The notes beneath the pieces are model-generated. The model was not told the origin of the DNA. It saw nothing but the letters and a program-made list of their open reading frames with translations, and did no database searches. This document shows, one piece after another, positions 1 through 55,462 of a DNA stretch of 64,000 nucleotides. Where the stretch lies: the NCBI GenBank assembly GCA_963674785.1, contig OY771555.1, positions 1,224,511 through 1,288,510 of the forward strand, written 5' to 3'. Origin of the DNA: Caldisericia bacterium (GTDB lineage: Bacteria; Caldisericota; Caldisericia; JAAYUI01). A program made the translations under genes and the position numbers. The stretch's first letter is position 1. Every line of letters begins with the position of its first letter.

Positions 1-1688
1 CGATTGATATTGGTGAAGACGGAGTTGTTTTTGATTGGGACTTCATAATTGATGAAATTGTTGAGGAAGAGAGCGAAGAGTTTGGTCCGGAAATGGTGAA
101 AATTCTTTCGGTTGACTTTGACCAGAAAATAATCAGATGCAACAAGCCTGATGATTTTTATAAGGATTGGAGACGAGCGGAAGAGATTCAGTATCGATTC
201 AGAGATGAGTTGTTGGTTTCAGAGGTTGAAGACCATAGGTGTTACAATATCTGGTACACAAGAAACCAGCTCAACAAAGAATTTCTCACAAAAATTGAAC
301 GAATTCCATGTCCACCACAATTTATAATCGACTATGTGAATGTTCCTGAAGCTGCAACAAGTGGAATGGGGAATAAGATAAAAATAAAAATCACAAATCA
401 TAATGAATTCCCCAGGATATATGAGCCAATATTTAGATCAGACGAATTTAATGGGTATTTTCAACCAGATAATGAGGAGATTGAAGTATACCCTGGTGAG
501 TCGGGTTACTTCTCGATGAATTTTGTTTCTAGTTTCGACTTTGAAGGTGTAATGATATTTGAGGTTGGAGCGGTTTGTGATGGTGTAGAACAGATTGAAG
601 AGTTTGAGATTCTATTTGAAAAACCACAAATTGAAATTGAAAAAATACCATATGTTGTGAAAATAAGAAAAGGAAAATCTGACTATTTTGAGTTCAAAAT
701 CTTCAACAATGGAACTGAGAAGATAAAAGTTGAGACTTATGTTGAAGGGTATGATTTTCCTGGAAGAGTTTATATCAGTTCTGATACTTGTTGGGTGAAA
801 CCGGGTATTCCAAAAGAATGTAAAGTTAGGGTAGAATGGGACATGGATACTCCTATTGGAACCCAATATCCGATCGAATACGGAGCATCGATCGGTGATT
901 ATACAGAGAAAACAAATGTGATGGTACAGTGTATTAGTGATTTGGCTCCTGAGATTGAAGGAAAGTTTTATTATTTGGGCTCAAATGAGGTGAGATTTGA
1001 AGGTGAAATCGATTGGAAAGGTTTAGAACCTTTGAGTCTTGCTTTCGAATGGGATGATTATGTTGACTGGGATGAGGACAGATTAATAGTATGGGATGAC
1101 TCATATGATGATTTCCCTGTAACTCATAAATTCAACTTGGTTGGCCATCACATTGTTTTAGCAAAAGCTGAGGCTAAAACCGGCGAAGTGGGTTTTGCTT
1201 GGGCATGGGTTGAGTTAGATGGTAAATACCCAGTGTCCTATATCACTGATGTAATATGGAGAGAGAGTGAACCGAGGAAATTCTGGCTCGATGGGTTTAT
1301 AAACTGGAATAAGCTTGAAAAGGGCAATATGGCAATCTATTGGGATGATGACGTCGTAACGTATGGATTACCATGTGAATATATATCAAAGATGATTTCG
1401 TTTATTCATATCGGTTCCTCAATAACAAAAGCGACATCTGGCGAACAATCATACAAGAATTTTGGATTAATAGGTTTTACTCCCTCAGTTAAATCCAATC
1501 CTCGCTTTGCTATCAATAACGATTTAAATAAAAACCAATCGATGCAAATTTTGAAAAATGTTGCATATGGAAGGATTATGAAACGTGAAAAAGTCTGTTA
1601 TCCTGGTATTAGTTTTTTGTCTTGTGTTGATGACATTTCAAGCTCAATTCCTATCGGCAGGAGAACTGGGGGTTACCACACCGAGTGA
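1..1688 (+). CDS. Secreted/surface protein, 5'-partial (frame open to window start); D-W-[DG]-[DE] PKD-like motifs
   Basis: Frame of the 93..1688 ORF has no stop back to position 3. Repeated 'IDWKG/VDWDED/FDWDF' beta-sandwich-like motifs. The 3' end overlaps the next gene by ~100 nt. Confidence 0.5.
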   Translation, partial: IDIGEDGVVFDWDFIIDEIVEEESEEFGPEMVKILSVDFDQKIIRCNKPDDFYKDWRRAEEIQYRFRDELLVSEVEDHRCYNIWYTRNQLNKEFLTKIERIPCPPQFIIDYVNVPEAATSGMGNKIKIKITNHNEFPRIYEPIFRSDEFNGYFQPDNEEIEVYPGESGYFSMNFVSSFDFEGVMIFEVGAVCDGVEQIEEFEILFEKPQIEIEKIPYVVKIRKGKSDYFEFKIFNNGTEKIKVETYVEGYDFPGRVYISSDTCWVKPGIPKECKVRVEWDMDTPIGTQYPIEYGASIGDYTEKTNVMVQCISDLAPEIEGKFYYLGSNEVRFEGEIDWKGLEPLSLAFEWDDYVDWDEDRLIVWDDSYDDFPVTHKFNLVGHHIVLAKAEAKTGEVGFAWAWVELDGKYPVSYITDVIWRESEPRKFWLDGFINWNKLEKGNMAIYWDDDVVTYGLPCEYISKMISFIHIGSSITKATSGEQSYKNFGLIGFTPSVKSNPRFAINNDLNKNQSMQILKNVAYGRIMKREKVCYPGISFLSCVDDISSSIPIGRRTGGYHTE

Positions 1689-4281
1689 TCAAAGTGAAGT
1701 AAGAAGCTTTGCTCTTTCAGTGCTTCCGGGCTGTGGGGATATCGTCCTCTCCTGGCAGGATGTTTATGGTGTTTCAACATTCAAAGTTATGAGAGATGGC
1801 AAACAGGTTGCCATGCTCTATAATAATGAGACTGTTTGGGTTGACTTAGTACCTGAGGATGGAATAAATGAGTATCAGATTATAGGGCTCGACGATGAAA
1901 GAAATACAATATGTGAGTCATGGAAGATCGAAGCCAAAACGAGTTGTTTTGATACAGAGCTTTGCAAGACTGTCCTCAAATACAAACTTGACTCAACAGA
2001 TTATTGGGTGGATGGCACAAAAAAAGGACCAATGGATACCCCACCAGAGATAAACCTCGGTAGAATGTTTTTAGTTATCAGGTATGTAACTCAAGAATTG
2101 GGAGCAGAACTCTCTTGGGAAGGCACAGAAAAAAAGATAACAATCACAACAAAAACCGGAAAGATTATTGATCTGTGGGTTGGGAGACCTCTTGCGATGG
2201 TTGATGGGGCATCTGTTATGATTGATTCAGATAATATGGCTGTTGTTCCCTATATAAAAGAAGGAAGAACACTTTTACCGATGAGGTTTGTAGCTGAACA
2301 GCTTGGCGCAACGGGTGATGAAGATGTTATTTGGGATGGTGCTACAAAAACTGTTACTCTTAAGGTTAGAGACGAGGATTGCCCTGAACCAGATATAATG
2401 TACTTTACTGTTTCAGAGATTGATTCTGCTAAGTGGTTAGTTAAATGCAGAGATTCAATGAGGAATGATGTTTATGTAAATCTGAATCAGGAGTATGCAA
2501 TATTTAGCGCAACTTTAGAACCAGGACAAAAAATAAGAACTGCTGGAAAAGTTAGTATTGAGGACAGAAAACGGATTTCGATTGAAGCAAGATGGATAAA
2601 ACTTGTTGATGAATCAAGTGTCGATGAGGTGATCTGTAAGCCTGTTAGTTGTGATGAAAAGAAATTGATCTACATGGGAAAAGTTGCGTCTGATGAAGAA
2701 GATGGCGTGACCAAAGAAGAGATTGAGTTAAATTATACCAGATCATTTGAAGAGCTTGAAAGCTCTGAGAATCGTTATTGTGTCAGACTTCTTGTGGATG
2801 AAAAAAAGAATATTATCTGGTGGGAGCCAGCAGTATTTATTTCAAGCAATGAACAAATAATAACGCACTCAATTGATTTGTTGGATGTTGATAAAGAACA
2901 GAAACGTATCAAAGTAGAATATGATGATGGTGAACTTGAATACACCGATTGGATTTATTTCCCAATTGATTTTGAGTTTGACAAGTATGATGATGGCGGA
3001 TGTTATAAGGTTGATTATCAGATAAACGATGCTGGCAATAGAATATCAAAATCAAATCTTGAAGAGTATGACTGCACAGCTGCCTTTACAATCACAAGTC
3101 AATCAGATGGAATTGAAGTTTATCCTGGGGCTGAATTTGTTGGCAAGTTTGTTCTCAGAAATATTGACACTGAAGATTCAACATTCAAAACGGTTGCAGT
3201 TATTTCAATTGATGGGGAGGAAACTCAACTTGGTAGAGACACTCACGATATAAAATCCAGGTATAACAAAAAAATATCAGAAAGATTTACTGCTCCAAAT
3301 GCTGAAGGAAGTTTCAAGTTCGGTATAAGGGTTATTTCTGGTTCAACAAGTCGAACGTGCTGGGCAGAGGGCATATGTGTTCCGTTGGAGTTTGAGTTAA
3401 GCATTCCAAAAAAGGAGTATGAATTCCATCTCAATGAACCGGTCTATATTTCGGCATCTGTTTCTCATGAACATGATTCTCCGCTTCATATAGTACCTTT
3501 TGTTGAAATTCCATCAGAAGCTCTTCAGAGAGCAGAAAATAGTGTTCTTGGAGGATTAGACGTCAGATCGGGAGTGGAAAAACCAGTAAATCTTGTGCTT
3601 GACTGGATTTATACGAATGCTGTGGCTGGAGAATCTTACGAGGTTACAATTGGTGTAAGGTGCAAAGGTGTTTCTAAAACAGAGACTGTCGTTATAAAGG
3701 CTCTTGACTATATTCCACCAGAGGTTTTTGTTTCGAGTATTGAAAATGATGACTATAAAAAAACAACTATTTATGGAAGTATAAACTGGAATAATCTTAC
3801 ACCTGATAGGATTGAGGTTGATTGGGGTGATGGAATAATCACTGATGGTGATATTTCCTTCCCATTATCACACGTGTATGAGGATTGGGGAGTGTACAAA
3901 ATAAAAGTGAAAGTCATTTCTGTTGAGGGTGCATTTGCAGAAACTTCTGAAGAATATGTTTGTGAGGATCCTCCTCCACCTCCTCCTTTAATTTCAAGTG
4001 TTGATTTTGGAGATAAGTTGCTAGACGATTACACGATTGGTTTGGATATTGAAGTTAATTGGCGTGATTATGTAAAAGGAAAGATTCATATTGATTGGGG
4101 GGATGGTGAGAAAAGTGAATCATCAAGGACAGTTTATAAGCACAAATATCCAGAAGAGGACTTTTCTTCGTATATCTTAACAATTAAAGCGGTTTCAAGA
4201 GAAGGATATGAATCACCAACAAGAAAATTTGAGATATACGTCCTTTTCGGATGGTATATGCTTATAGGTGAAATTAGATAA
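1585..4281 (+). CDS. Large surface protein: signal peptide, FnIII-like, tandem CAO-N-like module near the N-terminus, two C-terminal PKD-like (WGDG) domains
   Basis: GTG start followed by a hydrophobic signal peptide 'MKKSVILVLVFCLVLMTFQAQ'. 'EGRTLLPMRFVAEQLGA' CAO-N signature. 'IEVDWGDGIITDGD...HVYEDWGVYKIKV' and 'IHIDWGDGEKSE' PKD signatures. Architecture parallels that of 12153-15638. Confidence 0.75.
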   Translation: MKKSVILVLVFCLVLMTFQAQFLSAGELGVTTPSDQSEVRSFALSVLPGCGDIVLSWQDVYGVSTFKVMRDGKQVAMLYNNETVWVDLVPEDGINEYQIIGLDDERNTICESWKIEAKTSCFDTELCKTVLKYKLDSTDYWVDGTKKGPMDTPPEINLGRMFLVIRYVTQELGAELSWEGTEKKITITTKTGKIIDLWVGRPLAMVDGASVMIDSDNMAVVPYIKEGRTLLPMRFVAEQLGATGDEDVIWDGATKTVTLKVRDEDCPEPDIMYFTVSEIDSAKWLVKCRDSMRNDVYVNLNQEYAIFSATLEPGQKIRTAGKVSIEDRKRISIEARWIKLVDESSVDEVICKPVSCDEKKLIYMGKVASDEEDGVTKEEIELNYTRSFEELESSENRYCVRLLVDEKKNIIWWEPAVFISSNEQIITHSIDLLDVDKEQKRIKVEYDDGELEYTDWIYFPIDFEFDKYDDGGCYKVDYQINDAGNRISKSNLEEYDCTAAFTITSQSDGIEVYPGAEFVGKFVLRNIDTEDSTFKTVAVISIDGEETQLGRDTHDIKSRYNKKISERFTAPNAEGSFKFGIRVISGSTSRTCWAEGICVPLEFELSIPKKEYEFHLNEPVYISASVSHEHDSPLHIVPFVEIPSEALQRAENSVLGGLDVRSGVEKPVNLVLDWIYTNAVAGESYEVTIGVRCKGVSKTETVVIKALDYIPPEVFVSSIENDDYKKTTIYGSINWNNLTPDRIEVDWGDGIITDGDISFPLSHVYEDWGVYKIKVKVISVEGAFAETSEEYVCEDPPPPPPLISSVDFGDKLLDDYTIGLDIEVNWRDYVKGKIHIDWGDGEKSESSRTVYKHKYPEEDFSSYILTIKAVSREGYESPTRKFEIYVLFGWYMLIGEIR

Positions 4282-6488: not shown

Positions 6489-9326
6489 CTAAGGGCTATA
6501 TTTTAGAATGATCTTTCTCTCTTCACCAATCCATTCGATTTCAGCCGAAACCACCTCAGAAAAAAACCTTATTGGAACCATTGTCCTTCCATCAATTATT
6601 GTCGGTGGAGGGTCAGTTGTATAAGTTTTAACCTCACCACCATCTTTTACTTTGACGGATTTTTCTCCAGTTTTAAGAGTTATCTCGAGAGTATCTTTTT
6701 TGAGAGTGATTTCTTTTGTGTCACCATTCCAGATCACTTCAAAACCAAATGTTTCAGTGATAAACCTTAGCGGGACCACAGTTCTTCCATTTATGATTGT
6801 GGGAGCTTTTTCTAATTCTACATGGTTTTCGTCAACAAGTGCAGCATCAGAATCGATTACAAGTTCGATTCTCATCTGATTTGAATCATAAACTGTTGCT
6901 CCATCAATTTTGACAATTACACGTGCATCTGCAAGTATATGAAGGAAATCCAGGGGCGCATATATTTTATCATCAATTCCTCTAGTAATAGAGTTTGATA
7001 AAGCTTTTGGGTGTCCATCGCAATTTATTATTCTTGAGCCAACCGTCATTGTATAGCTAAATTGAGTTGATTGAATCGAATAAACACTACCTGTTTGTTC
7101 GAGTTCTACATCATCGTAAAATAGTTTACACGCAGTAGGTACTTCAATAAATGGAGTTCCTACAACAAAGAGCTTGATACTTTCATCGATAAATAGTGTC
7201 CCCCCATTTATTTTGGTTTCCTTCGAATCAGATCTAAACTCAATCGTATATTCTCCGGGTTTTGGTTTGATGCTTGAATCACCAGAGATTTTAATGTCAA
7301 TATTCATATTATACATTCGATATACGAATTCAAAAGGTAGGTAGATATCTCCACGTATGATCTCTACCGGGTGAGGCATTATCTGAGGGCTTTCTAGTCC
7401 AGTTTTATACTTGATAAGTGCAACCTGATTTCCTATCCTAAAAACCGATTCCATTTCCAAATTTTTGTTGTAGAGTGTAATTTCTTTATCTTCTATTTTG
7501 ATCTCAACTACAAGACCAAGAATCTTAGGAATTGAATTTATTTCAATCATTAAGGTTCCCAAATTGGTTGTCCACGGAATCTCATTCATCTCAACAATCT
7601 CTCCGCCTACAACCGCAAGTTTTGAACCATACATCAATTCAACGTTGATTGTTTTTTTTGGGATAGTTACTGTCACTTCAACAGTTTTTTCTCCACCATT
7701 GGATTCAAAGATTATTTGCCCAACGTTTTCGCCGACATCAAGATCATCTGCTTGAATACCCACAGAGATTTCAGAGTTTCCATCAAACTCATCTTTATCA
7801 ATCTTAATCCAATCCTTTGTTGTCTTGATTGTGCCAAAAAGCTCGGCTTGTCCATCGTTTTCAAGTATTATAGTCTGTTTTTCATCCAGGTTTTCTTCTG
7901 AAAAAACAAGAGCTTCTGGTGTAACTTTTAAAACCGCTGCAATCATCGGAATAGACAGTTTGAGTCCGATTTTTGCATCACCACCGTCGCTATTGATGAT
8001 TATTGTGCAAGTATGTTCTGTCCCGGCATCAAGTCTCGAAAGATCAACAAATCCATGAGCAACAAATTCATTATCTGTAACTTCTGAAAATGTTGACGCA
8101 TCAAAGCTGATCCAGTCGCAATCGGTGTTGATGTTACCTGAAAGAGGTTCACCTCCTTTATTTGTTATTATGAACTCAAACTCTGGATATGAGTTTTTGC
8201 TAACCTCTCCAAGGTCAATTCCGAGAGTTGAAACAGAGAGTTCGGCTGGAGTCGTTGGTGGAGGTTCAGGTGTAGGGTCTTTTCCGATTTGAAAATACAT
8301 GAATGCAGGTGATTGGAGGAATGTAGAGGATGTGCCAAGGCTTTCGGTGCCAGAATGAATATAAACGCAGTATTTACTTCCATAAGGAAGAGGGGATGCT
8401 GGTTTAATGGTAAGAGTCTGGTCAACCATTTTCCCGGTTGTTGGATAAACAAGTCCATTTTGATCAATCAAATCCCATTTTGGAATGTTTGTGTATTTGT
8501 AATCAGAAAACGTGATTTTAAGTTCTTCTGGGGATTCTTCAAAAAAACTGCCAAGTGGGGTATCAAAATTTTCAACCTGGAACTGGTTTCTTCGCCAAAT
8601 ACCAGCCTGGTATATCTCATAGTTGTCAAAGGATTCAATTAGGAATATCCCGTAAACTTTTTTGTAGTCAACATTTGATGGGATATTCCAGTTCAATTCA
8701 AACTTCATCGCAGAGTGCTCATCAATTTGAAATGATTGTCCCGTTGGTTCTGGTTTTACATCTCTGCAAACCCAACTGTATCTTCTGCCTGAGGCTTTAG
8801 CGTCATCCTCGCAGATTATGAATGTGAAATTTGTTTCAGCAGGAATTGCATTCCAACCCAAAACATACGAAGTAAGTTTTAAATGGTCTTCTTGAATATC
8901 TCCTGTCAAATGTACCAGGAATGGACTTTTTTTGTTGATGTGGTAATCAATCATCTGGTCGTATTTTTCCTGAGTTTGTGTATCTCCACCTTGTACGAAT
9001 GTGTTCCCGTTAAAAATTGATGTTGGTGTTGCGACAACTCCGTAAGCTTTGATTCTTGCCGTGCTATTTACTTGTGACAATGAATCGTTGTAATGATGAG
9101 AGATTATCCCCAACCTGTCTTCTGGATACTCATAAGAAAGGTTTGAAAGTGCCTTTTCGGCAATTGGGCAGTAACCGCACCACGATGCTGTCTCGAGTTC
9201 TACAATGCATGTTCGCGGAAATCCATGTACAGTTTTACTAATTGCCCCAAATGTGGCAATATCTGGGAGAATCCCAAAAACAAGTGCAAAAACCAAAAGA
9301 AAAACAAAATAATTCCTAGCTTTCAT
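6489..9326 (-). CDS. Large surface protein with an N-terminal thioredoxin-like CxxC domain and a C-terminal tandem CAO-N-like module
   Basis: Signal peptide 'MKARNYFVFLLVFALVFG' (start likely the ATG at 9326; the ORF track starts at 9341). 'ASWCGYCP' followed by cis-Pro-type 'ATPTSIFNG'. C-terminal 'INGRTVVPLRFITETFGFEVIW' and 'IDGRTMVPIRFFSEVVSAEIEW'. Confidence 0.75.
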   Translation of the reverse strand: MKARNYFVFLLVFALVFGILPDIATFGAISKTVHGFPRTCIVELETASWCGYCPIAEKALSNLSYEYPEDRLGIISHHYNDSLSQVNSTARIKAYGVVATPTSIFNGNTFVQGGDTQTQEKYDQMIDYHINKKSPFLVHLTGDIQEDHLKLTSYVLGWNAIPAETNFTFIICEDDAKASGRRYSWVCRDVKPEPTGQSFQIDEHSAMKFELNWNIPSNVDYKKVYGIFLIESFDNYEIYQAGIWRRNQFQVENFDTPLGSFFEESPEELKITFSDYKYTNIPKWDLIDQNGLVYPTTGKMVDQTLTIKPASPLPYGSKYCVYIHSGTESLGTSSTFLQSPAFMYFQIGKDPTPEPPPTTPAELSVSTLGIDLGEVSKNSYPEFEFIITNKGGEPLSGNINTDCDWISFDASTFSEVTDNEFVAHGFVDLSRLDAGTEHTCTIIINSDGGDAKIGLKLSIPMIAAVLKVTPEALVFSEENLDEKQTIILENDGQAELFGTIKTTKDWIKIDKDEFDGNSEISVGIQADDLDVGENVGQIIFESNGGEKTVEVTVTIPKKTINVELMYGSKLAVVGGEIVEMNEIPWTTNLGTLMIEINSIPKILGLVVEIKIEDKEITLYNKNLEMESVFRIGNQVALIKYKTGLESPQIMPHPVEIIRGDIYLPFEFVYRMYNMNIDIKISGDSSIKPKPGEYTIEFRSDSKETKINGGTLFIDESIKLFVVGTPFIEVPTACKLFYDDVELEQTGSVYSIQSTQFSYTMTVGSRIINCDGHPKALSNSITRGIDDKIYAPLDFLHILADARVIVKIDGATVYDSNQMRIELVIDSDAALVDENHVELEKAPTIINGRTVVPLRFITETFGFEVIWNGDTKEITLKKDTLEITLKTGEKSVKVKDGGEVKTYTTDPPPTIIDGRTMVPIRFFSEVVSAEIEWIGEERKIILKYSP

Positions 9327-9443
9327 GCACTCAATATACAATAAATTCTCAATTTGTTCAATCGATAACAGAACAATTGCATGAAGAGGTTGTATGAAAG
9401 CTGTTGACCCAAAATTCTTGAAGGGATTGAAAACTCTTATAAA

Positions 9444-12083
9444 ATGCGAGATATGAAGAAATTTGTAATTGCTTTTGTTTCACTGTTGCTTGTTGTTTCG
9501 ATGGTTGTTTCGTGCGGGGAGGAGAAAACTCCTGAAGAAATGGTCGAATATCTTGAGCAATGGCAGGTGGGAGGGATAGTAATCCCAACGGACGATTACC
9601 AGCTTTTTACAAAACTATCCATTTTGTCACAGAAGACTGAGGAAGTTTTTAAAGCTGAAATCACAAAAAAGCCTGATGGAATAGAAGTTGCCAAAAAGGA
9701 AAACATCACTTTTAACAAACACTACTACGATTTCTATGTTAAAGCAAAAGAGGATCAGGTGGGTATCTATCCATTTGAAATTACTCTTTCGTCCGATAAT
9801 AATACTCATGTGATAAAAGGAGAGATCGAGATTCTTGCCCAAACCGAGAAGTTAGATAATCTATTTGGTGGGGCAAACAGGTCAAACGTGCTAACTGGGT
9901 TTGATTTTGACGGCAAGGATGTTGTGAAAAACCACTCAATTACTGATGATCTTATAACCGGACCAGTATCAGATGGAAATAGTATTTTTATAGGAACAAA
10001 AGATGGAGATTTGATAAAACTTGACTCTGATTTAAATGAGTTTTCTAATATAAATATAATCGATGCTTCAATCGATAAAATTCAAATCTGTGGTGATTAT
10101 ATTTTTATTGCTGATGTTAATGGTGTTGCTTATATTTTTGAGAAATCTGATACCGATAATTCATCAATGAAACCTATCTCAAAGCTTGATCTGGGAAGTA
10201 GACTATCTGTCACTCCTTCTGTCGTTTCTGAAAAAAATCTTATTGTTGGGACAAAGGGCGGAGCAATAATTTCATTGGCATATCCAAAGCTTAAAAAGAA
10301 TTGGGACTATAAGACTGGTGGAGAAGTGATTTCGCTTGCGGCATCATCAGGAGTTTCAAAAAAAGGTGACCGAAAAGGGACAATTGTTGCTGCATGTGAT
10401 GATAGGAATGTATATTTTGTTGGTCTTGATGGAAAACTTGTAACTATGGAGTCAAATGTAAATGATTTTGTGAAACATGTTTCAATAAAAGACGGAAAGG
10501 TCGTTTTAATTTCCGAGACCAATAAAATCTTTTTGAGAAATCTCAGTGACCTATTAATCTACGACATGTTTACTGAAAAAAACATAGATAGTGGGGCAGC
10601 TTTTAATGGTGATTATGTAGTGACTGTCAGTAGAAATAACTTGAATGTTCATGGTATCGATGATGGTTACTTACAGTTGGAGATGCAACTTGATGCAGAG
10701 GTGGTTTACGATCCAATTATTTTGGATGATAAAGTTCTCTTGTTTTTAGAAGATGGTACTTTTAGAGTGATGGATTTCATGGATGGCACTGAACACTGTA
10801 GACACAATTTCTCAGGAAAACCTTTAGGATGGCCAATAATAATCGACGAAAAACTCGTTTTAATGAATGAAGATGGTTACATTTCAACATGGGGAGAAAG
10901 AGAAAGGGTTGAATTGAGCGGAGCCGTTGATATTTCAAGTGTGAAGTATTTTGGTGGAAGAGGAGACCTCAGGCATTCGGGGTCTTTTGATTTTTCTGTT
11001 CCAGAGAATCCTTCTGTCATTCTTGAAATTCCGGGTAATTTTGCTCCACCGATTATTTCTAATAAATACATTTTTTTGTATGATATGGATCGTGAAGAGT
11101 TCAGTTTGAGGTCACAAGAAGATGGTGGAATAGTTTGGTATATCCCTGAAAAAGCAGCACACGGGTTGTTCACTGGTGCGGGACTAAATGCTGGTCCTCA
11201 CGAATCTCCGATGTTTATTACGCAAGATGGATTATTTATTGCAACCGAATCAGGTCTTTGGCTTGTAGATGAGAATACTGGAGAAATAATACAAAAAACT
11301 AACTACATCGGTATCCCTCAGATTGATGAGCAGGTGATTGTTTTGACATCTGAAGCTGGTGTTGTGTGCCTTGACAGGAATATGAATCATTTATGGACAA
11401 AGAGTTTAATTGGAGTCACATCTGGTCAACTGTGTATTGATGACGACGAGATATATGTTTTTGATAGGAACGGTGATGATTCAAAAATATACGTTTTTGA
11501 AAAGTTGAGTGGAAATACCCTTTTTGAAGAAACCGATTCGATATTACAATATGGGACAAAATTAGTTCTCTCAAGCAAGATGGCCGCAACAGGAACAATA
11601 GCAGGGATGTGGCTTATGGGTAGAGAACCATATATGGTTTTTGGAGCGGTAAATGGTACAAATAGGGCTTTGAACCCATTTGTTATTGATGGTGTTATTG
11701 GCTCAATGCAAGAGGGAATCGGATTGATAAAAAAGATTGATTCTGTAAGAGATTTTGCGGAGATAAATTACTTTGATATTAGAGGGATTAAAGATGAAGA
11801 TTCAGTCTTCTACAACTTTTTTACAGGCAACGATTTTTTGACGTTTGATAGATTGGTATCACTTACTGCAAAAGAGGAGCTAAAGGCAAATACTGATGAA
11901 TCTATAAAACCTCCACCTGAGGTGTATGTAACAATTAGAAAAAAAATAAACGGAGAGATTCTTTCAGAAATTTTTGTTAATAGCACAGGAGTTGCGGATT
12001 ATGCGATGACAGCAACTGATAATTTAATTGCTGTCTGTCAGCAGGGACCATCACCAAAACTCCTTCTGATTGGCGAGAAGTAG
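9444..12083 (+). CDS. Lipoprotein with PQQ/BamB-like beta-propeller repeats
   Basis: Lipobox 'LLVVSMVVSC' after an N-terminal basic region. Recurrent ~40-aa repeats with G-x-[IV]-x-x-[LI]-D/ '...DG..' periodicity. 879 aa. Confidence 0.65.
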   Translation: MRDMKKFVIAFVSLLLVVSMVVSCGEEKTPEEMVEYLEQWQVGGIVIPTDDYQLFTKLSILSQKTEEVFKAEITKKPDGIEVAKKENITFNKHYYDFYVKAKEDQVGIYPFEITLSSDNNTHVIKGEIEILAQTEKLDNLFGGANRSNVLTGFDFDGKDVVKNHSITDDLITGPVSDGNSIFIGTKDGDLIKLDSDLNEFSNINIIDASIDKIQICGDYIFIADVNGVAYIFEKSDTDNSSMKPISKLDLGSRLSVTPSVVSEKNLIVGTKGGAIISLAYPKLKKNWDYKTGGEVISLAASSGVSKKGDRKGTIVAACDDRNVYFVGLDGKLVTMESNVNDFVKHVSIKDGKVVLISETNKIFLRNLSDLLIYDMFTEKNIDSGAAFNGDYVVTVSRNNLNVHGIDDGYLQLEMQLDAEVVYDPIILDDKVLLFLEDGTFRVMDFMDGTEHCRHNFSGKPLGWPIIIDEKLVLMNEDGYISTWGERERVELSGAVDISSVKYFGGRGDLRHSGSFDFSVPENPSVILEIPGNFAPPIISNKYIFLYDMDREEFSLRSQEDGGIVWYIPEKAAHGLFTGAGLNAGPHESPMFITQDGLFIATESGLWLVDENTGEIIQKTNYIGIPQIDEQVIVLTSEAGVVCLDRNMNHLWTKSLIGVTSGQLCIDDDEIYVFDRNGDDSKIYVFEKLSGNTLFEETDSILQYGTKLVLSSKMAATGTIAGMWLMGREPYMVFGAVNGTNRALNPFVIDGVIGSMQEGIGLIKKIDSVRDFAEINYFDIRGIKDEDSVFYNFFTGNDFLTFDRLVSLTAKEELKANTDESIKPPPEVYVTIRKKINGEILSEIFVNSTGVADYAMTATDNLIAVCQQGPSPKLLLIGEK

Positions 12084-12152: not shown

Positions 12153-15100
12153 TTATGGGCAACAGTCTCCCCAACCCTTATAAACCCAGCTGATGATGTA
12201 TATCCCTGATGATTCTTTTGTGTATGTCACCTGGATACAGCTTCCAGGAGGAAGTGTTTTGAATGAGTACAATCCAGATTCATCGCGAAGTCCTGGTTGT
12301 ACCATAAGGCTCATACCCTTCATCTCATATTCATCACATGCTCTGTAATCAAGTGTCAGAATTGCGCCTTCACCGTCAATATTTGCATCATTTGTAAACC
12401 CATTAAATTCAATATTTGCCCAGTCATAATTATCAACACAACACTCGGTATATTTCATTGATTGCCACGCAACAACTCGATTTCTGTTTGTGAAGAATCT
12501 TACGCAATGCTTGTATTTTGCAGTGTATTCTTCAAATGTGAACTGCCCATGAATATCTTTCATTTTGGGGTCAATAAAGAATTGAGTATTATAATCATCG
12601 CATAGCTTGATTGTTACAAAAACATCTCCGTTTTTGTCTTTTTCGCTAACATTTTCTATCAGTCCGTCATATATTACTGAGCAACAGTCTTTGTCCTGGT
12701 CAAGTGCTGTCCATGAGATAATTTCTGTTCCTTTAACTTTCAGAATGACACATTTTCCTTCCCCATACTTTTGGAAGGTGTATTTTCTTGTTGTGTCCAT
12801 AAGTGTTTTTTTTGCATTGTAACCAAGTCTTACATTTTCGTTAAGGTCCGGGCACTCACTAACCCAAACTGTTAGACTATCTCCATCATCATCAATTCCT
12901 CCAATTTTTCCAACAACGATTTTAGGTGGAGTGATTTTTGTGCAACAATCACCATCTGTAGAAACAAGTGTCCATGAGTCAACACTCAATACATTGCTTC
13001 CACCGCTAATACTAACACAGAAGGTTCCGCATACACCTTTTTTTATATCCTTGATGTGCATCTTTCCAGTTGTATCCATTAAGTCTGGATCAGCGGCCAA
13101 CATTACACCCATCCCAGATGCTGGATTCAAACATTCTTTTATAAAAATCATATCTGAGTAACCTTCGCCACCAGGATTTCTGTTTGTTACTGTCCCAAAA
13201 ATCTTTTTGCCTTCACAGACCTTGCTTTCTGGTGTTGGGTCAGGCTGCTCTTGGTTACCGCAGCAATCTTTTACAAGAGGAAGTGCAATCCATGAAACAA
13301 TCCTTTTGTTTACAACACAAATCTTCGCACACCCTTTATAGTCAAAGATTTTGTAATTTCCAGATTTATCAATTCTGATATCATCTGATCCCGTATACTC
13401 ATCAAAAACTGAAAACTCTCCACCACAAATCTTGATTGAAACCTTCCAAGGAAGGTCGCTTGTTCCTGTACGTTCTGCAGAGAATATTTCAACTGGATAC
13501 CAAGTGCAATCTTCTGGTGGTGGCTGGTCGCCTTTGCAACAATTTCCGCCATTTCTGATCATGGTTGGATAGATTTCCTTGTAGGGAAGTGCATCTTCAT
13601 AGATGGGGTTTTCTTTCGCTTCACCGCAGACGATCCAGCATTGCCCCTCTCTTATCTCAGCACACTGATCAGCTGAAAGGTAAACCCTCCATGCAGTATT
13701 ATTCTTGTCGTACCCGTCAAAATTAGGTTCATCATCGTCACAATTTACGACTTCAACTGAAACGCAGAAACAATTCGAATCATTACCACAGCAGTCTTCC
13801 AAAAATGCCTCTGTCACTCTCATTGATTTTCCAACAGGTGTTCCAGTTGTTTCGTCTTGAACAACAACAATCCCACAAACCTTCCAGCATTCGCCAATCT
13901 GCATGTCAGATGCTAGATTTCTGTCAACTACAAGACCCCAAGTTGTATCAGCTGTATCACCGGTCATTATGAATAGGTTATCATTGAGTGTAACTTTTGT
14001 TTTTATGGTCACACAAACACATTCTGCTTCTGGTTCTCCGCAGCAGTCTTCTTTTGTAGCCTCTTCGACCTTCATGCCAAAATTTATACCAGGGGTTGGT
14101 GTTCCGATTTCTCCAGTGTCTTCCTGCTCAACGATTTCACCGCAGACTTTCCAACACTCTCCATCATTCATTGAGTATGCAATGTCTCTTGGGATAAGCA
14201 GACCCAAAACTGTGCCATCTTCCTTTGTTCCGGTTGCGACAAAGAAGTCGTCATTAATTCTGGTTTTTCCATCGATGATTACACAAACACACTCAACCAC
14301 AGGTGGGTTATTATCGCAGCAGGTTCCTTCGCTAATCTGTGTGACTTCAAATCCTGGGAATCCGTGTTTTCCTTCAACGAGGTTTCCCTCAACATTGATG
14401 CAACTTCCTTCCATAAACTCAGCTTGAAGTGTTGGTGCTTTGAATAGAACCCATTTGACTCCCCATTCATCAGTTACGTATGCTTCACCTCTTCCAACCT
14501 CTTCAACATGAACACAAAGTCCGCACGAACCACCACCATCATTATTGTCGTCTGGTTCACATGGGCATTCTACGCCTCGAATGCTTGTAACCCTGAAAAC
14601 ACTTACAGTTTGTACATTTGTGCCTGGGAGTGGGGTTGTGATTGGGTCTTCTGTTTCTGAGCTTTGTGGATATCCGCAGATTTCATAACATTTGTTCACT
14701 TCAAGTTTGTAAGCAAGTGATGTCGAATTCCCCTCAAACATCAGATTCCAAGTTTTTCCATTTCCATCAACAGCTGTTGCTGTTGGGATTTCAGAAGTTG
14801 TGTTCAGAGATGCAATTGTCATGCATGTGCATTCGCGGCATTCTGGGTCATCAAAATAAAGAACAACGGTGCTTGTGTCTGAAAACCACTTGATGTCGTT
14901 TGGACCAGTAGCACCAAGATTTTCTGCAACAAATCTCATTGGAAGAAGCGTTCTTCCGTTTACAACATACCCAACAACAGATGGGTTATTGGGGTCAATC
15001 TGAACAGGCTGACCGTTTACAGCAGCAGTTGGTTTTCCAATCCAGATTTCAATGACATTGTGGTCGGTTGTTGTGATGATGATTTTTTTCTCGGCTGCGA

Positions 15101-15638
15101 CATAATCAACAGTTGCACCCATTTCCTCAGCAACATATCTGATGAGAAGGAACATTCTTGACTGATTGATTACTGGTGCTGCCTCCATTGGCCCCTTTTC
15201 GCCATCGTCAACCCAATACATGGTGTTTCCAACCTGATACTTGAGGATTCTTACACAATCATCTTCTTCCTCGTCTGGTGGGCAGGTTGGGGTCGCACAG
15301 TCCTCAATCGACTGAGCAAACTCATTTGCACCACTATCAACAGCGCGAACATAGTAGCAATAGAGCTGATCGTTCTGGATGTTGATTGTGTCTCTGAAAT
15401 ATGTTTCCTCAATTGGGAAATCAGTAAGAGGAGTTGCATACTCCATGCCAACTCCTGGTCCCCTGTAAATCCAGTAGTGGGCAGCATTTGGGACAGCATC
15501 CCAAACCAAGTCGTTATAACCACAACCAGGTGTGACTGTCAGATTAAATCCATCCTGAGCAACAGCTGGTGTGTTGGGTGGAATAATGCTCAAAATCATG
15601 AGCACAGCAATAGCAAACGTTATAAGTCTAGCCTTCAT
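12153..15638 (-). CDS. Large secreted Cys-rich repeat protein; N-terminal FnIII-like plus tandem CAO-N-like module, then repeated 'ECWKVCG...DCCG...C[VF]CV' units
   Basis: Signal peptide 'MKARLITFAIAVLMILSIIPPNTPAVA'. 'VNGRTLLPMRFVAENLGATG' CAO-N signature. At least three 'G[EQ]CW[KI]VCG' units. Many 'DCCG/DCCT/DCCS/ECCV/GDCCP' motifs. Confidence 0.75.
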   Translation of the reverse strand: MKARLITFAIAVLMILSIIPPNTPAVAQDGFNLTVTPGCGYNDLVWDAVPNAAHYWIYRGPGVGMEYATPLTDFPIEETYFRDTINIQNDQLYCYYVRAVDSGANEFAQSIEDCATPTCPPDEEEDDCVRILKYQVGNTMYWVDDGEKGPMEAAPVINQSRMFLLIRYVAEEMGATVDYVAAEKKIIITTTDHNVIEIWIGKPTAAVNGQPVQIDPNNPSVVGYVVNGRTLLPMRFVAENLGATGPNDIKWFSDTSTVVLYFDDPECRECTCMTIASLNTTSEIPTATAVDGNGKTWNLMFEGNSTSLAYKLEVNKCYEICGYPQSSETEDPITTPLPGTNVQTVSVFRVTSIRGVECPCEPDDNNDGGGSCGLCVHVEEVGRGEAYVTDEWGVKWVLFKAPTLQAEFMEGSCINVEGNLVEGKHGFPGFEVTQISEGTCCDNNPPVVECVCVIIDGKTRINDDFFVATGTKEDGTVLGLLIPRDIAYSMNDGECWKVCGEIVEQEDTGEIGTPTPGINFGMKVEEATKEDCCGEPEAECVCVTIKTKVTLNDNLFIMTGDTADTTWGLVVDRNLASDMQIGECWKVCGIVVVQDETTGTPVGKSMRVTEAFLEDCCGNDSNCFCVSVEVVNCDDDEPNFDGYDKNNTAWRVYLSADQCAEIREGQCWIVCGEAKENPIYEDALPYKEIYPTMIRNGGNCCKGDQPPPEDCTWYPVEIFSAERTGTSDLPWKVSIKICGGEFSVFDEYTGSDDIRIDKSGNYKIFDYKGCAKICVVNKRIVSWIALPLVKDCCGNQEQPDPTPESKVCEGKKIFGTVTNRNPGGEGYSDMIFIKECLNPASGMGVMLAADPDLMDTTGKMHIKDIKKGVCGTFCVSISGGSNVLSVDSWTLVSTDGDCCTKITPPKIVVGKIGGIDDDGDSLTVWVSECPDLNENVRLGYNAKKTLMDTTRKYTFQKYGEGKCVILKVKGTEIISWTALDQDKDCCSVIYDGLIENVSEKDKNGDVFVTIKLCDDYNTQFFIDPKMKDIHGQFTFEEYTAKYKHCVRFFTNRNRVVAWQSMKYTECCVDNYDWANIEFNGFTNDANIDGEGAILTLDYRACDEYEMKGMSLMVQPGLRDESGLYSFKTLPPGSCIQVTYTKESSGIYIISWVYKGWGDCCP

Positions 15639-16304: not shown

Positions 16305-17414
16305 TTACTCATATTCAATAGTTTCCGCTATTTCATCAATGAACTCAGGTTTTATATATTTCATTATGTCTTTGATTTTCTCGATACCATTGAGTAATGA
16401 TTCATATGATATATAACTGCATATATCTGGTAGTGGTGGATCAAGATGGGAAAAGGTAGGTCTAATAATCTGATTAAAAACCTTTTCTCTTTTTTCAATT
16501 GGGGCAACAATGTAAAGATTTATGTTGATATTTGGTTGAAGACTTATTAGGTCAGACATTCTTAGTAAGCCAGAATATATAGATGTTGTGTGTTCGATTT
16601 CAAATGCAGAAATAATCGATTTTCCCTTTAGCCACAATACATCTATTAGCTCAATAGTTTTTTTCGTACTTTCGTGAAAGTTTATCGGTAATTCGTCAAG
16701 AAGTCCTGGAAGATTTGAAATAATACCATTTTTACTTTCCCTATTTCTATCGTTTTTGGGTACCCAAGTTTTTAATCCCAGATCATATCCTAATTTAGAT
16801 AAAGCAAATTGAATATCAGTATGTGATAACAAGTCGTTAGTGAGTTTAATGTCATTGATGTCTTCATCAACTGGAATTGAAATTATCTTACCACTTGCAG
16901 TCTCATCAAGTTTTGGTGTATTCTTATTCGTGAGCCACTTTTTATCGATTTCCTTTTTTATTGGATTTTCCTTGGCATTTTTAATAGCTGATAGCACTAA
17001 TTCCCCATCTGCTGTTTTCCACTTCATTGGAGATGATCTAACAAAAGATGTCCAGTAATGTTTTGGTTTATCTTCTTTGTTGAAAAATGATAGCTCCTTA
17101 ATTTCTTTGATAGGGACTCCATATTCAAAATCAATTTCGTCGATTATCTTTACCTTCATTCTTGATGGGAAAGGATCTGCAGAAAAAATCTTTTGCTTGT
17201 CATCTTCGAATGGTTCTGAGACAACCTCCAGAACTCCAACAAATCTAGATATCCCGATTATATAACAGAGCAAATAATCTCCTGGTTTGATTTTTTGAAC
17301 AATATTCCACCTAGATTTTCTGAATCCGGATACTTCTCCCCCAGCTTCTTTAAACTCAGTCCAACTTTTGATCGAGAAAAGGTCTAACCAGTATGTTCTT
17401 TTTTTGTTTCCCAT
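16305..17414 (-). CDS. EVE (PUA-like) domain protein with an uncharacterised ~230-aa C-terminal domain
   Basis: N-terminus 'RTYWLDLFSIKSWTEFKEAGGEVSGFRKSRWNIVQKIKPGDYLLCYIIGISRFVGVLEVVSEPFED' matches the EVE-domain pattern (YW...W...G...GF...RW...PGD.ll.Y......GV.EV). C-terminus contains 'IDVLWL...AFEIEHT'. Confidence 0.6.
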   Translation of the reverse strand: MGNKKRTYWLDLFSIKSWTEFKEAGGEVSGFRKSRWNIVQKIKPGDYLLCYIIGISRFVGVLEVVSEPFEDDKQKIFSADPFPSRMKVKIIDEIDFEYGVPIKEIKELSFFNKEDKPKHYWTSFVRSSPMKWKTADGELVLSAIKNAKENPIKKEIDKKWLTNKNTPKLDETASGKIISIPVDEDINDIKLTNDLLSHTDIQFALSKLGYDLGLKTWVPKNDRNRESKNGIISNLPGLLDELPINFHESTKKTIELIDVLWLKGKSIISAFEIEHTTSIYSGLLRMSDLISLQPNININLYIVAPIEKREKVFNQIIRPTFSHLDPPLPDICSYISYESLLNGIEKIKDIMKYIKPEFIDEIAETIEYE

Positions 17415-24450: not shown

Positions 24451-24526
24451 GGCGGGGTAGCTCAGTGGTTAGAGCACACGGCTCATACCCGTGGCGTCGT
24501 GGGTTCGAATCCCACCCCCGCCACCA
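24451..24526 (+). tRNA. tRNA-Met (CAT), CCA encoded
   Basis: Cloverleaf read by eye: acceptor GGCGGGG/CCCCGCC, D-arm GCTCAGTGGTTAGAGC, anticodon stem CACGG/CCGTG with loop CTCATAC, T-arm GTGGG-TTCGAAT-CCCAC, discriminator A, then CCA. G1:C72 suggests an elongator. Confidence 0.85.
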
Positions 24527-25161: not shown

Positions 25162-25237
25162 TGGTGCCAAGAGACGGACTTGAACCGCCGACACGAGGAT
25201 TTTCAGTCCACTGCTCTACCAACTGAGCTATCTTGGC
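25162..25237 (-). tRNA. tRNA-Phe (GAA), CCA encoded
   Basis: Reverse complement gives GCCAAGA-TA-GCTCAGTTGGTAGAGC-A-GTGGA-CTGAAAA-TCCTC-GTGTC-GGCGG-TTCAAGT-CCGTC-TCTTGGC-A-CCA. One U-U mismatch in the anticodon stem (28:42). Confidence 0.75.
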
Positions 25238-25324: not shown

Positions 25325-27262
25325 CTATTCTCCTATCCATCCTTCGGGTCGATATAGATTGGGATAAAATATATCGATGCTTCTTTTTTCTCCGTTCCAT
25401 TTAACTTCTGAATCGAAGGCTTCAGATACAAATCTCAAAGGAACAAGAGTCCTTCCGTCTTTTATTGTTGCAGGTGGTTCGATTTCAACTTCGTTATCAT
25501 CTATGGACGCAGTACTTTTTCCTATTGGTATTCTGATTGTCTTCCTACCTTTTTTAAAAATAGCTGTTTTTGTCTCGGCTTCATAGCTTACATCAGCATT
25601 AAGTGCCTCCCCTAAAAATCTAAACGGCACAACAGTTCTTCCGGATATTATAGTCGGTTCGACATCCAGACTCGTTGATTCACCGTTTACGGTGGCTGAC
25701 TTTGAACCAATTGTCATGGAAATCCAGATCGGTGATGGAAGTGGATTTATACTGACTTTTCTAGGAACACCTTCTCCAGATTTGTATATTGGAACGACTG
25801 AATAGCTGAATTCTGATTCAGAAAAAATACCCTCATCTTTAAAGTCTGTTTCAGTTGATGATAACTCAATATATTCAAAATCATCGTAAATTTTGCCACC
25901 GTATTGCTCAGTTTTCCTGATAACGTATTTCAACAGTTTCTCATGGTTATATGTTGGGGGATTCCATTTGAGATAGATTCCATTGATTTCAGGTGTAGCG
26001 ATAAGGCTTCTAACGAATTTCGTCTGGGTGCTTGATTTAGGAACAATAACATTTACTGGGACTTTGCCGATAAAGATTCCACCAATGTCTGTCAGCATAA
26101 CGTTTGTTTGATAGGTTCCTGCAATTAGGTTGTCAGCAATTTTAACCTCAATTTCGATCAACCCACCTACTCCAATTGAGATATCATTTTCAGACAAGTC
26201 GATCCAATCAGCATCACAACTTAACAATCCTTCAAAAACGATGTTTCCGTCATTTTTTATCTTCAGTTTTTTTGTCTCACCAAATGGGTATAGTCTTGAA
26301 CCAAAGTCTAAGGTCTTGGGGTCAAAGTGAATAATTGCCTTATCTAGTTTTTCTTTTGGTTTTCCGGTAACGATATTTGAAATTTCACCTTCAGAACCAT
26401 TTTCGCAGATAACTGTTATATAATATTTGTAGGTATTATTATTCATCGCATCAGGGTCAATGAATTCTACTTCAGTTGGAATCAAAGGTTCAGGATTTAT
26501 CTTTATAAATTCTTCATCATTTTCTGTTCTATAAACGTTTATCCCCAGTATCTTCTCTTCAATTGGTTTCCAGGAAAGCTTTACCATGTTGTCCAAGTCG
26601 TATGACACCAGGTGAGGTGGAGCGATATTGCATCTTTCAAGGATTTCTTCCCCCGTCAATGAATACACAAGACCAAACTCTGTTCTGTCTTCGGTTTCTG
26701 GAACCTCGGGGCACATTGTGTGTACAAAAAATCTTATTCCCTCAGGGTTGTTTAAGTCTTCGAGTTTCACAGAAAGCTCTAGAATGTCACCATCAGAAAA
26801 AAGCTCAATATCTGCAATTTTTTCATCTTCTTCGTCTTCTTTTAATTCAATCAGCTCTCCGAATGATTCTGCCTTGGAAGTAAGAATACTTATAAGATGA
26901 TCTTCTCCACCGTAGTTGTCTGCAGTTTTTTTTATCCCGGTTTTTGCATCAAGATCCGAATCAATTACAATGTGTATCAGTCCGAAATCTTCTGGGTTTA
27001 GTAAATTGTGAATAACAAGGGTTTTAAAATAGAGTTTTTCATCATCGTGAGCACAAAAAACCTTTATGATGTCTAGACAAGCTTCGTCCATTCCATCATC
27101 CACAATCTCTACGTATTCTATGTTTTCTTTCGCTTGAGCAATGTTATTTGCAGAGATTCTGCTGCCAACTGATGCAAGAAGAATCATACCTGCCAAAAAA
27201 ATCGAAAGTATTTTGTTTAGTCTGTTCATTTTTTCCTCCAGAACTAAGTATATTACAGACAC
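25325..27262 (-). CDS. Secreted surface protein: FnIII-like domains plus C-terminal tandem CAO-N-like module
   Basis: Signal peptide 'ILSIFLAGMILLASVGS'. 'LSWKPIEEKILGINVYRTEND' FnIII-like. C-terminal 'ISGRTVVPFRFLGEAL' and 'KDGRTLVPLRFVSEAF'. Confidence 0.75.
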   Translation of the reverse strand: MSVIYLVLEEKMNRLNKILSIFLAGMILLASVGSRISANNIAQAKENIEYVEIVDDGMDEACLDIIKVFCAHDDEKLYFKTLVIHNLLNPEDFGLIHIVIDSDLDAKTGIKKTADNYGGEDHLISILTSKAESFGELIELKEDEEDEKIADIELFSDGDILELSVKLEDLNNPEGIRFFVHTMCPEVPETEDRTEFGLVYSLTGEEILERCNIAPPHLVSYDLDNMVKLSWKPIEEKILGINVYRTENDEEFIKINPEPLIPTEVEFIDPDAMNNNTYKYYITVICENGSEGEISNIVTGKPKEKLDKAIIHFDPKTLDFGSRLYPFGETKKLKIKNDGNIVFEGLLSCDADWIDLSENDISIGVGGLIEIEVKIADNLIAGTYQTNVMLTDIGGIFIGKVPVNVIVPKSSTQTKFVRSLIATPEINGIYLKWNPPTYNHEKLLKYVIRKTEQYGGKIYDDFEYIELSSTETDFKDEGIFSESEFSYSVVPIYKSGEGVPRKVSINPLPSPIWISMTIGSKSATVNGESTSLDVEPTIISGRTVVPFRFLGEALNADVSYEAETKTAIFKKGRKTIRIPIGKSTASIDDNEVEIEPPATIKDGRTLVPLRFVSEAFDSEVKWNGEKRSIDIFYPNLYRPEGWIGE

Positions 27263-31261: not shown

Positions 31262-31285
31262 TATCTACCCCTTTAGAGACCAGGC

Positions 31286-37186: not shown

Positions 37187-37246
37187 ACAAAATCAAATCA
37201 TTTCTCGTAGTAGATATTAAAGAAATATCGAAGGAGAAAATGTTTG

Positions 37247-55369: not shown

Positions 55370-55462
55370 AAAACTACCCCCTCTCACATAAAACCATTAT
55401 CTTCAGAACAAGACCCCTAAGCAATAGATAGAAGGGGATATAAAAGTAAAATCACACAAAAA

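Follow-up and report, generated by a model that had tools for sequence, protein, structure and literature searches.

The 64,000-nucleotide stretch of Caldisericia bacterium DNA analysed here (contig OY771555.1; hereafter the window) carries on its minus strand, at 12153..15638, an open reading frame (ORF) for a protein of 1161 residues, which an initial annotation made from the letters alone had described as secreted and built from a novel Cys-rich repeat. Both the ORF and its richness in Cys were borne out: the protein contains 61 Cys (5.25%), as compared with 0.7–2.7% in the other long ORFs that we regard as real in the window, and nine CC doublets are found at residues 440, 532, 616, 700, 792, 898, 985, 1066 and 1159, regularly spaced by 81–106 residues (mean 89.9, standard deviation 7.4). 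In shuffled sequence the mean number of doublets is 3.15, and nine or more occur with P = 0.003. The protein ends one residue beyond the last doublet. All motifs quoted in the initial annotation were found, namely ECWKVCG (residues 494 and 583), QCWIVCG (666), EDCCG (530 and 614), CVCV (450 and 540) and CFCV (623), together with the five endings in DCC or ECC. There are only two CxxC motifs in the 1161 residues, and the CxxCH motif is absent from the whole protein. The isoelectric point (pI) of the mature protein is 4.37. Whole-protein Pfam and NCBIfam scans detected no catalytic domain, and scans for promoters and terminators remained at chance level. The features of the gene are as follows (OB, oligonucleotide/oligosaccharide-binding fold, as predicted below).

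12153..15638, minus strand: whole gene; signal peptide, beta-rich N-terminal segment, copper amine oxidase N-terminal (CAO-N) domain and ten Cys-bearing OB-fold units
15558..15638, minus strand: Sec-type signal peptide, residues 1–27, with a hydrophobic core and an AVA/QD cleavage site, as read from the sequence
15258..15557, minus strand: conserved N-terminal segment, residues 28–127; no Pfam fn3 match
14865..15206, minus strand: CAO-N domain (PF07833), residues 145–258, Pfam match
14559..14834, minus strand: type A OB unit 1 (A1), residues 269–360; CTC...CYEIC...CPC, 6 Cys
14316..14525, minus strand: type A OB unit 2 (A2), residues 372–441; CGLC...C...CC, 5 Cys
14040..14294, minus strand: type A OB unit 3 (A3), residues 449–533; CVC...CWKVC...CC, 6 Cys; modelled with AlphaFold2
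13788..14024, minus strand: type A OB unit 4 (A4), residues 539–617; 6 Cys, 52% identical to unit 3
13536..13775, minus strand: type A OB unit 5 (A5), residues 622–701; 8 Cys, including the optional fourth pair Cys633/Cys659
13260..13523, minus strand: type B OB unit 1 (B1), residues 706–793; 6 Cys
12942..13226, minus strand: type B OB unit 2 (B2), residues 805–899; 6 Cys; modelled with AlphaFold2
12681..12941, minus strand: type B OB unit 3 (B3), residues 900–986; 4 Cys, no linker to its neighbours
12438..12680, minus strand: type B OB unit 4 (B4), residues 987–1067; 4 Cys
12159..12431, minus strand: type B OB unit 5 (B5), residues 1070–1160; 4 Cys

Repeat units and their fold

The unit boundaries were obtained with iterated hidden Markov models (HMMs) seeded with the protein's own units and run over the six closest homologues. 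Five units of type A, with the pattern CxC...GxCWxVCG...CC or CPC, and five of type B, with the pattern ...C...GxC(xxxC)...SW...CC, tile residues 269–1160 with linkers of only 0–11 residues. The initial annotation had counted at least three units of the ECWKVCG kind; these are present, but type A has five members, the two that were missed being 269–360, which ends in CPC, and 372–441, which starts with CxxC. The units that follow, which had been called shorter, are not so: type B units measure 81–95 residues against 70–92 for type A, and represent a second sequence type instead. When the two types were aligned with HHalign, the probability was 1.2%, or 2.4% with larger alignments. What they have in common is the fold and a Cys framework at strand 4 and the C-terminus. 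We treat them as two families sharing these features and make no claim of homology in sequence.

The units seem to have kept their places for a long time. When the units of the orthologues P0001 and P0004 were compared position by position, nine of the ten diagonal identities were 32–62% (B3, 28%), and the off-diagonal values were mostly 20–35%. This positional conservation indicates that the units are old and individually maintained rather than parts of a recently expanded spacer of variable length. Within the protein itself only A3 and A4 are close to each other, and their 52% identity points to a recent duplication.

AlphaFold2 run on the type A alignment gave a model with a pLDDT (predicted local distance difference test) of 83.5, in which strands at 2–12, 17–23 and 29–35 are followed by a helix at 36–39 and strands at 47–54 and 72–81; the type B alignment gave a pLDDT of 87.5 and a pTM (predicted template modelling score) of 0.80. 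The models show a closed beta-barrel of five strands, arranged b1-b2-b3-(helix)-b4-b5, as is characteristic of the OB fold. Both unit types are therefore confidently predicted to be ordinary OB folds, and the architecture is not novel in the sense first proposed.

The sequences, on the other hand, match no described family. We scanned 35 type A and 26 type B units singly against Pfam, and nothing scored better than E = 0.01: the best match to a described OB family was tRNA_anti-codon (E = 0.011, 16 bits against a cut-off of 27), and NigD_N-like appeared in three of the 35 type A units at E = 0.039; neither score amounts to membership in a described OB family (tRNA_anti-codon, SSB, NigD_N-like, BOF and others). 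Neither NTR nor TIMP (PF01759, PF00965) was among the Pfam matches listed for these 61 units at E up to 10. For the whole protein, NCBIfam gave no match and Pfam gave CAO-N only; profile searches of PDB sequences with the unit types returned nothing below E = 0.25, and no description of this family was found in the literature. The earlier statement that the repeat is not a described family accordingly holds at the level of sequence (Pfam, NCBIfam and PDB profile searches), and assignment to a known domain family, named at that time as the result that would speak against it, was obtained for the fold but not for the sequence family. Types A and B are, in our view, undescribed sequence families on a well-known fold and not a new fold.

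Pairing of the cysteines

How the Cys residues pair was read from their joint gain and loss across 250 type A and 74 type B units of family members. The eight Cys columns of the type A HMM sort into four pairs, with the following numbers of units.

Columns 2 and 50 (C1–C4): both Cys 123, only the first 0, only the second 29, neither 98
Columns 4 and 77 (C2–C6): both 136, only the first 16, only the second 2, neither 96
Columns 12 and 38 (extra loop pair): both 150, only the first 3, only the second 40, neither 57
Columns 46 and 75 (C3–C5): both 185, only the first 50, only the second 3, neither 12

The commonest type A patterns are likewise made of whole pairs: four pairs in 76 units, three pairs in 25 and 21, and two pairs in 18. 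Collapsing the type A units at 40% identity left 136 clusters; the first three pairs stayed strong in this set and C3–C5 became weaker, as is weighed below. In type B, column 6 (the N-terminal Cys) goes with column 69 (the second Cys of CxxxC), with both present in 50 units, only the first in 0, only the second in 12 and neither in 12; the remaining four Cys of type B are invariant or nearly so. Pairs of Cys that are gained and lost independently of one another are what one classically sees for disulfide partners, and a four-ligand metal site would not behave in this way; the pattern fits disulfides.

The doublets, which drew attention in the first place, look different in this light. In unit A1 and in most units of P0006–P0013 the CC is replaced by CPC, and this interchange indicates that the adjacency of the two Cys is incidental, not essential. 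Furthermore, the two Cys of the doublet covary with different distant Cys, C6 with the second Cys of CxC (columns 4 and 77) and C5 with the GxCW Cys (columns 46 and 75). These two observations speak against a vicinal disulfide between residues i and i+1 and leave the earlier suggestion that the doublets imply an unusual disulfide topology unsupported. The suggestion of metal binding fared no better, because the Cys come and go as independent pairs and not as a set of four ligands. On these grounds, and with no CxxCH and only two CxxC, sites of the Cys4 metal or iron-sulfur class are not supported; a multihaem cytochrome was rejected for want of CxxCH. Thioether or radical-SAM crosslinks were also considered and rejected, as no such enzyme gene adjoins the gene.

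The predicted pairs fit the OB topology of the models, where strand 1 would run antiparallel to strand 4 with residue 2 opposite residue 51 (model numbering), and the tail after strand 5 would fold back over the face made by strands 1 and 4. Counting Cys128–Cys267, described in the next section, as one pair, 60 of the 61 Cys fall into 30 predicted pairs. The remaining Cys372 lies in the CGLC (a CxxC, residues 372–375, window positions 14514–14525, minus strand) at the start of unit A2, and C[GST][LI]C is kept in the orthologous A2 unit of all five close homologues compared. Cys372 may serve as a free thiol, as a link between molecules or as a site of redox activity.

N-terminal module, relatives and gene neighbourhood

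The CAO-N domain reported initially was confirmed, since the match to Cu_amine_oxidN1 (PF07833) scores 72.7 bits against a gathering threshold of 24.2 and covers profile positions 3–106 of 108. The FnIII label given to residues ~30–120 did not hold: fn3 (PF00041) was matched neither by the whole protein at E up to 1 nor by the isolated segment (residues 28–127) at E up to 10, and the sole Pfam match of the latter was an Ig-like domain at E = 0.14. An Ig/Fn3-like sandwich is possible for this region. Four Cys of the segment (Cys39, Cys94, Cys114 and Cys119) are invariant in the family. The CAO-N domain is flanked by Cys128, also invariant, and Cys267, conserved in the homologues compared, and these two may clamp the domain. 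The beta-rich segment and CAO-N together probably form a module that attaches the protein to the envelope or oligomerises it there.

We searched 1.84 billion representative proteins exhaustively with a profile and obtained 34 matches at E ≤ 0.001, about 30 of which carry the units. The largest relatives (2224–3191 residues) have 18–22 type A and 4–8 type B units each. Three tail matches (P0024, P0036 and P0038) have no units at a domain E ≤ 1e-4 and look spurious. Four relatives with the same architecture are poor in Cys (P0027, P0028, P0035 and P0037; 2.7–3.0% Cys), indicating that the cysteines are accessory to the fold. These four belong to a group of eight distant paralogues, with P0015, P0017, P0018 and P0019, that are 1635–2996 residues long, contain dozens of OB-like units with a reduced set of Cys or almost none, and open with an N-terminal segment that is recognisably similar when read by eye. 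OB-bead arrays thus appear to be a general building plan of giant surface proteins in Caldisericota, with dense Cys restricted to one branch.

When the N-terminal module was used as a probe, 12 loci were found among 185,579 species-representative genomes. Ten of them are in records bearing the name Caldisericota, Caldisericia or Caldisericales, and one metagenome-assembled genome (MAG) accounts for the contigs of the remaining two; where the names tell the source, it is an anaerobic bioreactor or a sludge digester. Several paralogues occur in one of the genomes: a 2.17-Mb contig has both locus L002 and locus L003 and is common to P0004, P0010 and P0017. The closest relative (P0002, encoded at locus L001) is syntenic with the window, and the more distant loci have only the N-terminal module in common. 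Homologues in public records are named solely by their CAO-N domain; this annotation (PF07833) covers ~10% of the present protein and leaves the Cys-rich OB array with none.

Eight proteins encoded in the window have a CAO-N domain, placed at one terminus or the other. The other seven ORFs are listed here.

1585-4281, plus strand: CAO-N protein
6489-9341, minus strand: CAO-N protein
25325-27262, minus strand: CAO-N protein
46780-48354, minus strand: CAO-N protein
48799-52776, minus strand: CAO-N protein
52853-55387, minus strand: CAO-N protein
55520-61153, minus strand: CAO-N protein

The passenger domains of the CAO-N proteins include beta-propeller/PQQ-like, BACON, NHL, cohesin-like and glucodextranase B domains. 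Only the protein studied here is Cys-rich, and no other ORF of the window carries the units. It looks as if CAO-N were the general surface-anchoring or oligomerisation module of this organism, in the role that SLH has elsewhere. In the first ORF of the list (898 residues), the first ~280 residues correspond to the whole N-terminal module of our protein and match the module of each of the 12 Caldisericota loci at 33–43% identity, and the C-terminal region is different and Cys-poor; this combination suggests a reusable head for varied passengers.

Other features of the neighbourhood were noted. A gene convergent with that of the Cys-rich protein (9444-12083, plus strand) lies 70 bp from its stop codon and encodes an 879-residue PQQ_2-like beta-propeller with a lipoprotein-type signal (...VVSC/GEE); the pairing of the two genes is kept in L001, not in the more distant loci. 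On the minus strand, ORF 16305-17414 encodes 369 residues with an N-terminal EVE domain and a C-terminal two-thirds without a Pfam match; it is missing from the otherwise syntenic L001 and gives the impression of an insertion, specific to this strain, that separates the TrmO gene from the next conserved one. A 300-residue stop-to-stop frame (31277-32176, plus strand) with 10.3% Cys and five CC was examined as a candidate and rejected: it is antisense to an SPFH/Band_7 gene (31286-32716, minus strand) and is very likely a non-coding artefact, not a second Cys-rich protein. The plus-strand ORF 37244-38569 encodes a protein of the arylsulfotransferase (ASST) family. The periplasmic enzyme of this family in E. 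coli depends on a dedicated disulfide system, DsbL/DsbI, and the ORF could help to trace an oxidative-folding pathway in this anaerobe. Just two RNA genes were detected in the window, tRNA-Met (CAT; 24451-24526, plus strand) and tRNA-Phe (GAA; 25162-25237, minus strand).

Possible roles and comparison with known systems

We infer, as a reading that we hold to be probable but well short of certain, that the protein is a string of OB beads associated with the cell envelope of this Caldisericota bacterium, locked by disulfides that form in vivo and having a structural or adhesive role. Once secreted, it would present the conserved N-terminal module, for attachment or oligomerisation, behind the signal peptide, and then 890 residues of ten OB barrels. 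The bonds of type A barrels would join C1, where strand 1 begins, to C4 in strand 4; C2, also in strand 1, to C6, which comes second in the C-terminal doublet; and C3, the GxCW Cys where strand 4 begins, to C5, which comes first in that doublet. The optional loop pair would add a fourth bond. Type B would keep the equivalent of C1–C4 and four invariant Cys. With 2–4 disulfides per barrel tying together strand 1, strand 4 and the C-terminal tail, the outcome would be a compact bead string that withstands heat and proteases, and a proteinaceous outer layer is plausible.

Several points weigh against this reading, the main weakness of its disulfides being the reducing, strictly anaerobic habitat. 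Caldisericota are strict anaerobes, and their MAGs come from reducing digesters. The secreted proteins of anaerobic Gram-positive bacteria have no bias toward even numbers of Cys (PMC2823432), and no gene for Dsb, a VKOR-type or another disulfide-forming enzyme was seen within the window. Among the pairs, C3–C5 depends mainly on a one-way relation (C5 is almost never present without C3) and on elimination; after redundancy reduction its P value is 0.003 at 40% clustering and 0.12 at 30%. The units are interrelated, so that the Fisher P values in general are not true probabilities. Cys372 is the sole Cys without a predicted partner. Finally, the only characterised bacterial domain resembling CAO-N leads to dimerisation (PMC10432803), and the role given to CAO-N here is our own deduction.

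The same habitat and the same survey of anaerobic exoproteomes would suit a metal or iron-sulfur array, in which the conserved Cys of every unit (for type A, C2, C3, C5 and C6) coordinate an ion or cluster and the protein stores metal outside the cell, nucleates metal sulfide on its surface or conducts electrons. Among the six closest proteins these four Cys do not vary, and some OB folds bind metals or anions, the Mop domain of ModE being among the Foldseek matches. In the wider family, however, pairs 4–77 and 46–75 are lost independently and not all-or-none (examples are the 18 units with '--CCC-C-' and the 8 with '-C--C-CC'), the architecture is kept in Cys-poor homologues, and CC and CPC are interchangeable; together with the scarcity of CxxC and the absence of CxxCH, this makes such an array unlikely. 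A different use of the pairs can be considered for strict anaerobes that respire sulfur compounds: instead of static staples, the ~30 pairs would be redox-active or sulfur-carrying surface sites (dithiol/disulfide or persulfide/polysulfide) that could buffer redox state outside the cell, capture sulfur or relay electrons, and the conserved unpaired Cys372, in its CxxC near the anchor, could be the point of entry. We give this little credence.

Binding roles of the barrels have to be weighed as well. A tandem OB array of the SSB/RPA kind could bind extracellular nucleic acid, for example in a biofilm matrix or in DNA uptake. But SSB and RPA types simply outnumber the other OB families of the PDB, the identity is only 4–20%, no Pfam match to SSB or tRNA_anti-codon comes up to threshold (the best is that given above), and at the level of sequence the units, with pI values of 4.1–6.1 and net charges of 0 to −11, do not suggest the basic or aromatic surface expected for a polyanion; we consider this role very improbable. 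The idea of a glycan- or protein-binding adhesin, in which each OB unit is a ligand module of its own, like the AB5 toxin B subunit or NTR/TIMP, and recognises a ligand different from those of the other units, on substrates or partner cells in the digester community, overlaps with the reading we favour and differs from it only by the binding role of the units. There are well-known examples of OB folds that bind sugars or proteins outside the cell, and the positional orthology indicates units that are individually specialised and not homogenised. Against it, there is no sequence match to carbohydrate-binding or NTR/TIMP families and no conserved non-Cys surface patch was identified, so that it appears rather doubtful. 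A protease inhibitor of the TIMP type was rejected: TIMP-type inhibition requires a free N-terminal Cys, and the units are internal repeats without one.

On the favoured reading of a disulfide-locked bead string, the protein represents neither a new fold nor a new mechanism. Two unannotated families nevertheless make up most of giant surface proteins (up to 3191 residues and at least 22 units) in a deep-branching and barely cultured phylum, whose annotation the finding aids, and they offer a clean example of how disulfide connectivity can be read by following which Cys pairs come and go from repeat to repeat. They also raise the question whether a strict anaerobe that lives in a sulfidic digester can make and retain ~30 disulfides per exported protein, and by what means; if the redox use of the pairs were true, disulfide-rich exoproteins would mark an undescribed extracytoplasmic thiol-redox system in Caldisericota. 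Caldisericum-like cells lack BamA (PMC4104836), and the family provides candidate building blocks for their unexplained outer envelope. Small, hyper-stapled OB barrels could in addition serve as stable binding scaffolds.

Compared with the known OB families (SSB, RPA, PriB, the N-terminal domain of MCM and the anticodon-binding domains of aminoacyl-tRNA synthetases), to which they are only 4–20% identical, the units are extracellular and acidic, would carry 2–4 disulfides each, and occur in uninterrupted arrays of 10–22 or more. The eukaryotic NTR/TIMP-like domains (netrin C-terminal domain, PCOLCE, complement C345c, meteorin, agrin NtA) are likewise extracellular multi-disulfide OB barrels. 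In TIMP, Cys1 and Cys3 of a CxC go to different distant partners, and type A also opens with a CxC whose two Cys appear bound for different distant partners. The NTR connectivity is C1–C4, C2–C5 and C3–C6; that predicted here from covariation is C1–C4, C2–C6 and C3–C5 (the last being the weakest), of which the first agrees and two differ. The present units are also smaller (~80–90 against ~120–130 residues), give no sequence-profile match to NTR/TIMP, and are bacterial, tandem and without a free N-terminal Cys. In overall plan the protein resembles the bacterial surface proteins made of tandem beta-domains, such as Big/Ig-like, Rib and SasG-type stalks and SLH-anchored S-layer proteins: like these, it has a signal peptide, a conserved attachment module and a long uninterrupted run of 80–90-residue beta-domains with very short linkers. 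Unlike theirs, its bead is a predicted OB barrel and not an Ig-like sandwich, and is probably stapled by Cys; its units are old and conserved in position, not recently homogenised, and its anchor would be a CAO-N module rather than SLH, LPXTG or an autotransporter. We describe the two families as OB-fold families with what appears to be an unusually dense, modular disulfide framework, so far found essentially only in Caldisericota.

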